The position numbers and the translations under genes were made by a program. Below, piece after piece: positions 3,407 to 41,415 of a stretch of 54,832 nt of DNA. The stretch covers positions 1 through 54,832 of the forward strand of contig SGYR01000004.1 of NCBI GenBank assembly GCA_004213405.1. The letters run 5' to 3'. Numbering within the stretch: position 1 is the first letter of the stretch; the number at the start of each line of letters is the position of its first letter. Source of the stretch: Candidatus Actinomarinales bacterium (GTDB lineage: Bacteria; Actinomycetota; Acidimicrobiia; Actinomarinales; Actinomarinaceae). Below the pieces are notes generated by a model. It worked only from the letters and a program-made list of their open reading frames with translations. It did not search any database and was not told where the DNA came from.

Positions 3407-3438
3407 AAAAAAATTGGGGCTCAATAGAGCCCCAATTT
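3407..3438 (-). terminator. Intrinsic terminator-like hairpin between malE and malF
   Basis: Perfect 12-bp stem AAATTGGGGCTC/GAGCCCCAATTT (3411-3438) with a 4-nt loop. On the minus strand it ends in a run of 7 T (3407-3413). Confidence 0.8.
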
Positions 3439-38474: not shown

Positions 38475-39128
38475 ATGATAGACTCATTAGAAATACTTAA
38501 GGAAAACAATCATATTGATTGTTCAAATAAACTTCTGGATTTAATAAGCTCTGAAATCAATGACTCTGAAAAGTATAGTCTTGGGTTATCGGGTGGAAGC
38601 ACACCTAAGTTTTTTTATGAATTATTTGCTAAAAAATATAAAAATTATTCAAATATTTATCTATGGACTGTTGATGAGAGACATGTAGATATAGATGACG
38701 AAAAATCTAATCAAAGAATGATTAATTCAATTTTCAGCAATTCAAATCTAAATATCATTGAATACTCTTATGAAGAAAATCCTGGCCATTCTGCAAAAAA
38801 CTACACCACTAAAGTTTTTAGCAAATTTGATAAATTTAATGCAGCAATATTAGGAGTTGGAGAAGATGGTCATATTGCGTCGCTATTTCCAGATACAACT
38901 GCTTTAAATGCTGATGAGAAAGGTTTTGTTCATAATGAAGTAAATATTCTCACTAGATGGAGAGTTACTTCTACTTTTGAGCTATTAAAAAATGTCGAAC
39001 ACGTATATTTACTTGTAACAGGTGATAATAAAAAAGGGATTATTGAAAAAATAGGTAAAGAAAATGATTTACCTGTAAATGAATTAATTCGTTTAAGAAA
39101 AAAAACAGTTTTATTGACTGACCAATAA
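38475..39128 (+). CDS. pgl: 6-phosphogluconolactonase
   Basis: LSGGSTP, DERHV..SN and LGVGEDGHIASLFP. Confidence 0.85.
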   Translation: MIDSLEILKENNHIDCSNKLLDLISSEINDSEKYSLGLSGGSTPKFFYELFAKKYKNYSNIYLWTVDERHVDIDDEKSNQRMINSIFSNSNLNIIEYSYEENPGHSAKNYTTKVFSKFDKFNAAILGVGEDGHIASLFPDTTALNADEKGFVHNEVNILTRWRVTSTFELLKNVEHVYLLVTGDNKKGIIEKIGKENDLPVNELIRLRKKTVLLTDQ

Positions 39129-39141
39129 AATTTATTATTTA

Positions 39142-39147
39142 TATAAT
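39142..39147 (+). promoter_or_regulatory. Putative sigma70 -10 box (TATAAT)
   Basis: Exact TATAAT ending 5 nt before the structured leader. A weak -35 candidate CTGACC lies at 39118-39123 (18-nt spacer). Confidence 0.5.
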
Positions 39148-39151
39148 ATTT

Positions 39152-39220
39152 GTAGAGTCATCTTTGTGTCAGTTTGAACCACTACACTAATCCTTCTACC
39201 CTGTTGGATGGTGACTCTAT
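39152..39220 (+). ncRNA. Candidate cis-regulatory 5' leader RNA (three-way junction), family not recognised
   Basis: P1 39152-39162/39210-39220 (11 bp, G-U pairs favour the + strand); P2 GTGT-C-AGT/ACT-ACAC with loop TTGAACC; P3 ATCC/GGAT. P1 pairs with the SD-like GGTGA. Confidence 0.6.
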
Positions 39221-39223
39221 TGT

Positions 39224-40090
39224 TTGAAAAAATATATGAAAATTAAAAATTACCTACAAATGCTTCTGACATCTTCTTTGTGGGGCTCTTCTTTTCTAAT
39301 GATGAAATATGCTTTAGAAGAATTAGACGCTTTTAATATTGCTTTCTACAGAATCCTTATAGGTATGATTTTCATTAATTTAATTGACTTCAAAAAAACT
39401 TCATTTTCATTACGCCAGCATTTTGAGTTAAGTATGGTTGGGTTGCTTTGGATGTCATTTCCTTTTTACCTATTTGCTAAAGCAGAAGAAACTATAACAT
39501 CTAGCCTTGCTGGATTAATTAATGGGTCGACCCCTATTTTTATAAGCCTTGTTGCTGTTTTAGTTTTTAAAAATAAGATCACAAAAAAACAGATTTTATA
39601 TTTAATTACTGGATTTGTAGGAATTTATTTTGTTTCATTTGGTTTTAGTAATGCATTTAGTGAATTAAACCTTGGTGCATTGTTAGCATTATTAGCTTCT
39701 GTAAGTTACGGTTTTGCGGCAAATATAGTGCAGCCTCTCATTAAAGAACACGGATCATTGAAAACATTAAAAATAGCTTTGAGATATGCAACTATAATTT
39801 CACTTGTTTTGTTAGTTGTTAACAGTGGGCCCTCTCTTCCAACTTATAATATTTCTTTATTTCCAATGCTGCTGTTAGGAGTTGGAAGTAGTGGAATCGC
39901 TTTTTTATCTTTTTATAATTTAATTGATGACGTTGGAGCAGTAGGAGGATCAATAACTGTTTATATTATTCCAATATTTTCTACTATTTTTGGATTTACT
40001 TTTCTAAATGAAGCAACTGAAGTAATTCAATTAATTGGAATATTTATTGTAATATTTTCGGCATTTCAATTTTCAAGAATTAAAAATTAA
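39224..40090 (+). CDS. EamA/DMT family transporter
   Basis: LWGSSFLMMK, SSLAGLINGSTPIF, two-repeat architecture and YIIPIFSTIFG..LNE. Start is TTG 39224 or ATG 39236. Confidence 0.9.
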   Translation: MKKYMKIKNYLQMLLTSSLWGSSFLMMKYALEELDAFNIAFYRILIGMIFINLIDFKKTSFSLRQHFELSMVGLLWMSFPFYLFAKAEETITSSLAGLINGSTPIFISLVAVLVFKNKITKKQILYLITGFVGIYFVSFGFSNAFSELNLGALLALLASVSYGFAANIVQPLIKEHGSLKTLKIALRYATIISLVLLVVNSGPSLPTYNISLFPMLLLGVGSSGIAFLSFYNLIDDVGAVGGSITVYIIPIFSTIFGFTFLNEATEVIQLIGIFIVIFSAFQFSRIKN

Positions 40091-40488
40091 TTTTTTGGGG
40101 TTACAAATAACCCTTCAGACACTGCTGCTATTTCGCCGTTGTCTAGAAATAATTCAGCCTTATAAATTGAACCCTTTTCACTAACTGAATCTCTCCATGC
40201 TTTAGCTGTAACTTTCTTATAATCTCCGGTAACTGGTCTTATGTATTTTGCAGTAAAAGTTTTAGTAACAACCATTTCGCCGAGTAAATAACTTAAAGGG
40301 CCCATTGTACAATCCATATAAGCATCAAGAATTCCACCTAAAGTAACATCCATTGGGTTAAAAAATTTCGACAGAACAGGAAAATCACAAATAAGTGATT
40401 CTTCTCGCTCATTAAACTCTACAAAGTTTCCTTCTAATTCAATATATATATTTGGAATTGGTAGGTTGCCCCATGTTTCATCACTCAT
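40087..40488 (-). CDS. PaaI/hotdog-fold thioesterase
   Basis: NPMDVTLGGILDAYMDCTMG and KYIRPV. Confidence 0.8.
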   Translation of the reverse strand: MSDETWGNLPIPNIYIELEGNFVEFNEREESLICDFPVLSKFFNPMDVTLGGILDAYMDCTMGPLSYLLGEMVVTKTFTAKYIRPVTGDYKKVTAKAWRDSVSEKGSIYKAELFLDNGEIAAVSEGLFVTPKN

Positions 40489-40509
40489 AAGTTAAGTATT
40501 TTAGTTTAA

Positions 40510-40541
40510 ATTGGCTACTTTGAATAATCAAAGTAGCCAAT
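40510..40541 (-). terminator. Stem-loop downstream of the deoC-ALDH operon (terminator or stabiliser)
   Basis: Perfect 14-bp inverted repeat ATTGGCTACTTTGA/TCAAAGTAGCCAAT with a 4-nt loop; only a weak U tract. Confidence 0.65.
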
Positions 40542-40587
40542 ACAGGGTATGAGTTATATAACTAATTTAGAATTCAAGTGTGACAGA

Positions 40588-41415
40588 TTATGTACCTTTA
40601 GGGTGCCAAACAGTTTTTGTCTCAAGATAAGGCAATATAGATGATAACCCAGAAATAGAAGGCAAAGAAACTACCCTTTTTACTGAACTAGATGCATTTT
40701 CTTGTATTCTCTTTAATCCATCCTTTTCGATTTCTTTATGTAATGCAACAAGATTTATTTCTACATGTTTACTTACATCATCAAGAATGTTTTCAAATTT
40801 TCCTGTAAGTATATTAAGTGAGCCCGCTGGAAAATCAGAGTTATTAATATCCTCAGCAAATTTTAAAGCTAAGACACTACTTTCCTCTGAGTATGAGATG
40901 ACTGAGCAACCAATAGTTACAGGAGGAAGTAAGCTCAATAAAAGCTCATTTAATGAAACTCTTGAATTACTGAGTGAGAATACTACTCCTATAGGGTTTT
41001 GATGAGAAATATTGAAATACTCTTCAGAAACTGGATTTAAATTTCCAGCTAACTGTTCCCATTTATCTGCTAATCCAGCAAACCAAATAATATTTTCTAT
41101 TGCTAGCTCTATATCTTTATTAGCTTTTTGTTTTGACATTCCATGAGAAATTAATAGTTCGATATAACTTTCTTTATTTCCCTCTATCATCTCCGAGAGT
41201 CTGTAAAGAATTTGCATTCTTGTGTAAGGTGTTAACCCATTCCATTTATTAAATCCAGATTTTGATGATGTGACGGTATCTCTTATATCTTTTCTTGATG
41301 TTAGAGGAAGTTCATAGAATTCATTTTTTAACTCTTTTGTATAAGTTTTTCCAGATTCTGAACGAACATATTTACCATCGACATAATTTTTATACGTTTT
41401 TTTAATATCTATCAT
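40588..41415 (-). CDS. Short ALDH-family protein lacking the catalytic domain
   Basis: KTYKNYVDGKYVRSESG, QILYRLSEMIE, PIGVV, PAGSLNILTG and ETKTVWHP. No ELGG, catalytic Cys loop or EIFGP. Confidence 0.8.
   Translation of the reverse strand: MIDIKKTYKNYVDGKYVRSESGKTYTKELKNEFYELPLTSRKDIRDTVTSSKSGFNKWNGLTPYTRMQILYRLSEMIEGNKESYIELLISHGMSKQKANKDIELAIENIIWFAGLADKWEQLAGNLNPVSEEYFNISHQNPIGVVFSLSNSRVSLNELLLSLLPPVTIGCSVISYSEESSVLALKFAEDINNSDFPAGSLNILTGKFENILDDVSKHVEINLVALHKEIEKDGLKRIQENASSSVKRVVSLPSISGLSSILPYLETKTVWHPKGT

Follow-up and report, generated by a model that had tools for sequence, protein, structure and literature searches.

The window analyzed here is a 54,832-nucleotide stretch of DNA from a Candidatus Actinomarinales bacterium. 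Between its genes for 6-phosphogluconolactonase (pgl) and an EamA transporter lies a structured RNA of 65 nt (39154-39218, + strand) that forms a three-way junction, and the features of this locus are collected in Table 1. The pgl-EamA gap that houses the element is long for this genome, in which intergenic gaps have a median of 20 nt and 56% are shorter than 40 nt (a crude count from open reading frames), and the element itself is richer in GC (42%) than the adjoining 100 nt on each side (18% and 28%). Both features had been pointed out in a preliminary description of the locus, and its positions for TATAAT (39142-39147), GGTGA (39210-39214) and a TTG (39224) are correct in the sequence.

Table 1. 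Features of the pgl-EamA region, in window coordinates.
Feature	Position	Strand	Basis or remark
pgl (6-phosphogluconolactonase)	38475..39128	+	NCBIfam TIGR01198, E = 9e-35
-10 box TATAAT	39142..39147	+	Alignment of upstream regions on P1; TAnAnT at this place in relatives
Predicted transcription start, A (first paired base of P1)	39154	+	Predicted from the -10 spacing
P1 5′ strand AGAGUCAUC	39154..39162	+	Pairs with 39210-39218
J1/2 UUU	39163..39165	+	Alignments; 3-5 U in relatives
P2 hairpin GUGU-C-AGU[UUGAACC]ACU-ACAC	39166..39187	+	C39170 bulged, loop 39174-39180
J2/3 UA	39188..39189	+	Alignment
P3 hairpin AUCCUUC[UACCCU]GUUGGAU	39190..39209	+	Loop 39197-39202
P1 3′ strand GGUGACUCU, includes GGUGA	39210..39218	+	Fold, alignment pair counts
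U-rich tail AUUGUUUG directly after P1	39219..39226	+	Sequence of distinct variants
EamA/DMT-family transporter gene, start ATG 39236	39236..40090	+	Pfam PF00892, E = 3e-35

Fold and conservation of the element

The minimum free energy fold of the + strand of 39150-39240 is a three-way junction, as the preliminary description had proposed, with an energy of -22.2 kcal/mol and z = -2.9; an equally good fold was obtained in 1 of 200 dinucleotide shuffles. The fold of the minus strand of the same segment is unremarkable (z = -0.75). P1 as drawn has 11 bp and includes the two G-U pairs that had been described as possible on the + strand only, G39152-U39220 and U39161-G39211. The element is read from the + strand because such pairs in P1 would become C-A on the opposite strand. 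With the predicted start at A39154, P1 in the RNA would consist of 9 bp. The bulged C39170 and the UUGAACC loop of P2 were also found as described, and the junction is tight, with UUU in J1/2, UA in J2/3, and zero bases in J3/1.

P3 had to be redrawn. The proposed helix of 4 bp with a 12-nt loop gives way, on the evidence of the relatives, to one of seven positions with the 6-nt loop UACCCU. This places U39194 and U39195 opposite U39205 and U39204 in the window as U-U mismatches; L083, the sister genus, and the type B/C relatives have A-U pairs at these positions. RNAalifold favors a 2-bp CC/GG mini-hairpin over the redrawn P3, which is therefore the least certain helix.

Pair counts were made on 51 distinct element sequences. 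In P1, three pairs are altered on both sides (A-U to G-C or U-A, and U-A to C-G via U-G) and three further pairs switch between G-U and A-U or C-G. All 7 pairs of P2 are invariant in 51 of 51 sequences, and the same set shows no variation in the GAACC of loop L2 or the ACCCU of loop L3. Structural conservation in relatives, which had been set beforehand as a test of the element, was thus found as covariation in P1 together with an invariant P2 and invariant loops. The pairing of a conserved domain that shows covariation with invariant unpaired nucleotides, the pattern used as a criterion for riboswitches, is present in the element. Against one set of relatives the element is 75-98% identical, compared with 58-79% for the pgl and EamA DNA, and the neighboring pgl and EamA proteins fall to 41-50% identity among relatives. 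The conservation and covariation of the element in about 50 species genomes are far beyond chance.

Distribution and comparison with known RNA families

A covariance model was built from the element and used to search the species genomes of the genus, the sister genus, and the rest of the class. The model matches exactly one copy in the window's genome, and the element is present in 49 of 64 Candidatus Actinomarina species genomes at one copy per genome, as well as in one copy in the sole sister-genus genome that was searched with the model. A second match in one genome was discarded, as it falls within a coding region. In the 336 other genomes of the class nothing convincing was found with the model, the two weak matches being without P2.

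The exact pattern of the invariant core was also searched for in 185,579 species genomes, and only Actinomarina/Actinomarinales records were matched; the two matching records that carry a different taxon label are probably mis-binned. The same pattern matches 105 stretches of metagenome DNA and 0 viral contigs, and the element is found on approximately 100 marine metagenome contigs. The metagenome matches inspected for a chance origin were the six without adjoining pgl or EamA, and these were set aside as tRNA-like or GC-rich chance matches. At L120, L124, L179, and L205, the pattern had matched a tRNA-like sequence (...GGTTCGAACCCTGTTGGAGC...) in the tRNA gene cluster of an unrelated organism, a match that arises by chance via the T arm. 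Taken over these searches, the element is specific to the Candidatus Actinomarinales lineage.

The preliminary description had been unable to assign the element to a known family, and cmscan against Rfam 15 bears this out. At gathering thresholds, three tRNAs were the only matches in the whole window, with none at the element; when the window, sister-genus, and type B elements were searched at E<=10, scattered snoRNA and lncRNA noise was obtained, none of it recurring. No tRNA was found at the element with ARAGORN or the Rfam tRNA model (RF00005). The literature yielded no described RNA motif for Actinomarina, EamA, or pgl, and no known riboswitches were found upstream of distant EamA homologs. 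A search by exact protein match returned a single genome record and no transcript assemblies. The structured RNA is real, read from the + strand, under strong conservation, and specific to its lineage, and Rfam does not contain it.

Three known families share some of its features. The purine riboswitch aptamers (RF00167 and variants) are also approximately 70 nt long, with a closing P1, two hairpins of about 7 bp, conserved loops of 6-7 nt, and a place in the leader of a transporter gene. The element differs from them in its junction strands of 3, 2, and 0 nt, which are too short for a purine-like pocket, and matches them neither in sequence nor by cmscan. The HMP-PP (thiS) riboswitch, a terminator-embedded aptamer, has a closing stem followed by a U-rich tract, as the element does, so that in both cases sensing and termination could use one stem. 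However, the thiS element is a simple hairpin, whereas the element is a three-way junction with no Rfam match, and its U-tract is absent in a third of the variants. The third family, 6C RNA (RF01066), is likewise a small actinobacterial RNA with runs of C in conserved hairpin loops; it has two hairpins with loops of at least six C, in contrast to UUGAACC and UACCCU within a three-way junction, and there is again no cmscan match.

Promoter, downstream signals and neighboring genes

The upstream regions of 66 distinct instances were aligned on P1. A TAnAnT hexamer is present in every lineage (TATAAT, TATACT, TATAGT, TAGAGT, TAGACT/TAAACT, or TAGAAT) at 6 nt ahead of the first paired P1 base. It is followed by six bases and then a purine in 62 of the 66 distinct upstream sequences, while the remaining spacer diverges. 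The promoter consensus scan returned CTGACC-18-TATAAT, with 10 of 12 positions matching. The distance from the -10 box to the start could be calibrated because leaderless genes with TANNNT at 6 nt are common in the window's genome. Applied to TATAAT at 39142-39147, this spacing would place the transcription start at A39154, and in each lineage the foot of P1 moves together with the predicted start position. In the survey of this genome, 56 of 313 well-placed genes have TANNNT exactly 6 nt upstream of the start codon, against a background of approximately 10, and an SD-like motif was found at only 26% of the same 313 start codons. Leaderless transcription seems to be one of the main ways in which this genome is expressed.

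On the downstream side, P1 is followed by a U-rich tail in many variants. In 38 of 59 distinct variants, the 10 nt after CUC, where the core of the P1 3′ strand ends, include at least 6 U. The window's own count is 6 U and some relatives reach U8-U9, and no such tract occurs in type B/C, the L116 group, or the sister genus. This tail could be the U-tract of a terminator. The consensus scan does not call P1 with its tail, since what the stem encloses is a junction and not a small loop. No enrichment of hairpin-plus-U terminators was seen within the window, and no expression platform common to all lineages was found. The clearest terminator-like feature of the window lies at 3411-3438; it is a palindromic hairpin with 12 perfect base pairs (AAATTGGGGCTC...GAGCCCCAATTT) and T-runs on the minus strand at its flanks, and has the look of a bidirectional terminator.

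The preliminary description had placed the EamA start at TTG 39224 and its SD sequence within P1, and had read the element as a translational switch. This part of the proposal did not survive the comparison with relatives. The N-termini of the orthologs, which align at MKIKNYLQ, fix the start at ATG 39236, and the TTG is not conserved. Clear AAGGA-type ribosome-binding sites in the relatives lie outside P1, 10-30 nt downstream of it, and GGUGA is conserved because it is part of a P1 strand. Other candidates for a translational platform were tried and rejected. The P3 5′ strand (AUCCUUCU), considered as an anti-SD sequence, complements AGAAGGA-type sites in several lineages and is absent in types B/C. 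Pairing of poly-U with the ribosome-binding site, in the manner of a fourU element, is found in type D only. A 12-codon open reading frame (MVTLLFEKIYEN, followed by a stop codon) at ATG 39207 (39207-39245) starts in the P3/P1 junction and is not conserved; it overlaps the EamA start, is absent in type B/C, and is probably meaningless. The EamA leaders of types II and III (L072, L071, L084, and similar) contain a conserved upstream open reading frame of approximately 9 codons (MLSFKACEF or MLGSLSCAN, then a stop), which is preceded by an AAGGAA ribosome-binding site in the type II leaders and not in the type B (type III) leaders. Its end overlaps the EamA start codon (GTG or ATG) in a different frame, an arrangement that suggests translational coupling. 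The type I EamA allele of the window is without this reading frame.

Across approximately 150 loci located by tblastn, the element follows the pgl stop codon by 22-45 nt in every true instance found. In the genus, the gene order is invariant where the element is present: pgl, promoter, element, and EamA 16-60 nt further on, all on the same strand. The EamA genes that follow the element fall into three allele types with a mutual identity of about 50%. In the window, the stretch from the element to ATG 39236 contains no -10 box or ribosome-binding site, and because it has no promoter or ribosome-binding site of its own, the window's EamA must use transcripts that carry the element. In the window's genus, the lack of an EamA promoter thus puts the element in the position of the 5′ leader of the EamA mRNA, in keeping with what had been proposed from the window. 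The proposal does not extend to the sister genus, which has the element with no EamA downstream.

In several divergent species of the sister genus, pgl and a TAGAAT box are retained along with the element, whose core is unchanged. The gene that follows, approximately 95 nt downstream of the element, encodes an alpha/beta hydrolase and has its own conserved TATAAT 7-8 nt ahead of the ATG. The operon that begins there encodes the alpha/beta hydrolase, a thiolase, a family III CoA-transferase, and a MaoC-like hydratase (L065, 2094-3026; L203, 8011-12030). The EamA ortholog of the sister genus is located elsewhere, 8 nt after a P450-like gene (L227), and is without the element. From these arrangements, the tie between the element and EamA is not universal.

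The opposite situation is seen in a clade of at least six species in which pgl-EamA is kept and the element is absent, leaving a CTATAT -10-like box and a leader of approximately 20 nt. In our reading of the alignments, the CTATAT box resembles the box upstream of the type D element. That this clade keeps pgl-EamA and the box without the element speaks for a promoter that serves EamA and for an element that can be dispensed with. The pgl-EamA spacer of these species (L012, L016, and L223-L226) has a conserved sequence of its own, CTCCTATATGTCTTAATAAGTTATGCTTAGCCAAG, ahead of the ATG, which is probably a promoter with a short leader.

A comparison with a close metagenome relative (L121, flanks approximately 95% identical) showed 93-99% identity through pgl and the element. 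Identity drops to 50-70% exactly at the 3′ end of the element and recovers near 41300, about 2 kb further on. The divergent segment (39220-41300) spans EamA, a hotdog thioesterase gene, and part of an ALDH-like gene. Genomes with pgl approximately 90% identical have EamA alleles that are only about 50% identical, and 39220-41300 is thus a replaceable, hypervariable segment. As the identity break at its 3′ end shows, the element passes down together with pgl, and EamA alleles are exchanged.

Possible roles of the element

The explanation that we rank first, tentatively and with a probability of roughly 0.4, is that the element is a cis-acting leader or attenuator of EamA with a putative ligand. 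The element would be transcribed from its own conserved promoter, and the RNA would begin with the first paired P1 nucleotide. P2, L2, and L3, all invariant, would make up a putative binding site for a small molecule or factor, and formation of the closing stem P1, behind which about two thirds of the variants have a U-rich tail, would decide whether RNA polymerase reads through into EamA, or whether ribosomes load. Both termination at P1 and any ligand are proposed here. The + strand fold, the covariation, the conservation, the promoter, the adjacency to EamA, and the U-rich tail all support a cis-acting leader, and so does the clade that lost the element, where the -10-like box would drive EamA via a short leader. 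The same explanation is weakened by the sister genus, which keeps the promoter and element ahead of another operon with its own TATAAT, by the lack of a platform common to all lineages or of an enrichment in terminators, and by a stable P1 of 9-11 bp, which is unusual for a ligand-dependent P1.

A close rival that is nearly as likely is a stand-alone small RNA. In this possible arrangement, an RNA of approximately 65-75 nt would be made from its own promoter, its terminal stem P1 would also end pgl transcription, and the RNA would act in trans via its conserved loops or as a protein partner, with EamA being reached only by read-through. The predicted start falls exactly at the foot of P1, P1 is long and stable, and a U-rich tail follows it in most variants of the genus. 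The core is unchanged in the sister genus, where no EamA lies downstream and the next gene has a promoter 7-8 nt from its ATG. The identity break against the close relative shows inheritance of the element with pgl, and there is no common expression platform. Small RNAs transcribed from a promoter of their own at the 3′ end of the preceding gene, as well as small RNAs derived from riboswitches, have examples in the enterobacteria and Listeria. The element resembles them in having a promoter after or within the end of the upstream gene, in being a short stable RNA, and in a terminal stem that would also end the upstream mRNA. It is unlike them in that the downstream gene relies on read-through and in that no target or chaperone is known. 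Against a stand-alone small RNA, the window's EamA, which is without a promoter or ribosome-binding site of its own, depends on the element transcript, and an entire clade has lost the element yet kept the promoter for EamA. Types B/C, the L116 group, and the sister genus have no U-tract, and neither a target nor a partner is known for the element.

It is somewhat doubtful that the element represents a new riboswitch class confined to Candidatus Actinomarinales, that is, a three-way-junction aptamer which starts at +1, whose closing stem is the terminator, and which controls a DMT/EamA exporter. Such a class would, in the sister genus, control the acyl-CoA-type hydrolase-thiolase-CoA-transferase operon, and its ligand would be a metabolite for which no riboswitch is known so far.

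A passive element that senses nothing, serving as a terminator or insulator of pgl and/or as a 5′ stem that shields the EamA mRNA, is improbable. Its invariable place 22-45 nt behind pgl and the stable stem with a U-rich tail in many variants are consistent with such a role, and a fully paired 5′ end would protect the RNA. Terminators and stabilizers, however, need neither invariant loops nor an invariant P2, and these are maintained here between proteins that are 41-50% identical; with the promoter located upstream of the structure, the element's own transcripts would also be terminated at once.

A degenerate tRNA-like sequence or a DNA-level recombination site at the edge of a replaceable gene cassette is most improbable. 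The divergent 2-kb segment does begin exactly at the 3′ end of the element, no linker separates P3 from P1, which is also the case for a T arm, and the search pattern also matched real tRNA-like sequences elsewhere. However, ARAGORN and the Rfam tRNA model find nothing, and the element has three arms only, with none of the features of a T loop or an anticodon loop. The covarying G-U pairs speak for RNA and not DNA, no integrase is nearby, and each genome has one copy. Recombination inside a highly conserved stretch is also the simpler explanation of the breakpoint.

Candidatus Actinomarina are among the smallest and most abundant free-living actinobacteria of the surface ocean; they are uncultured and have very few regulators. 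The element is very likely important to these cells because it is kept more strictly than the neighboring genes in a streamlined genome. As an RNA of 65 nt with defined helices and invariant loops, it offers a precise and cheap target for experiments. If it proves to be a small RNA, the lineage would have its first described example. A riboswitch, on the other hand, would indicate a metabolite that is both sensed and exported by these bacteria, and would add a new aptamer fold.
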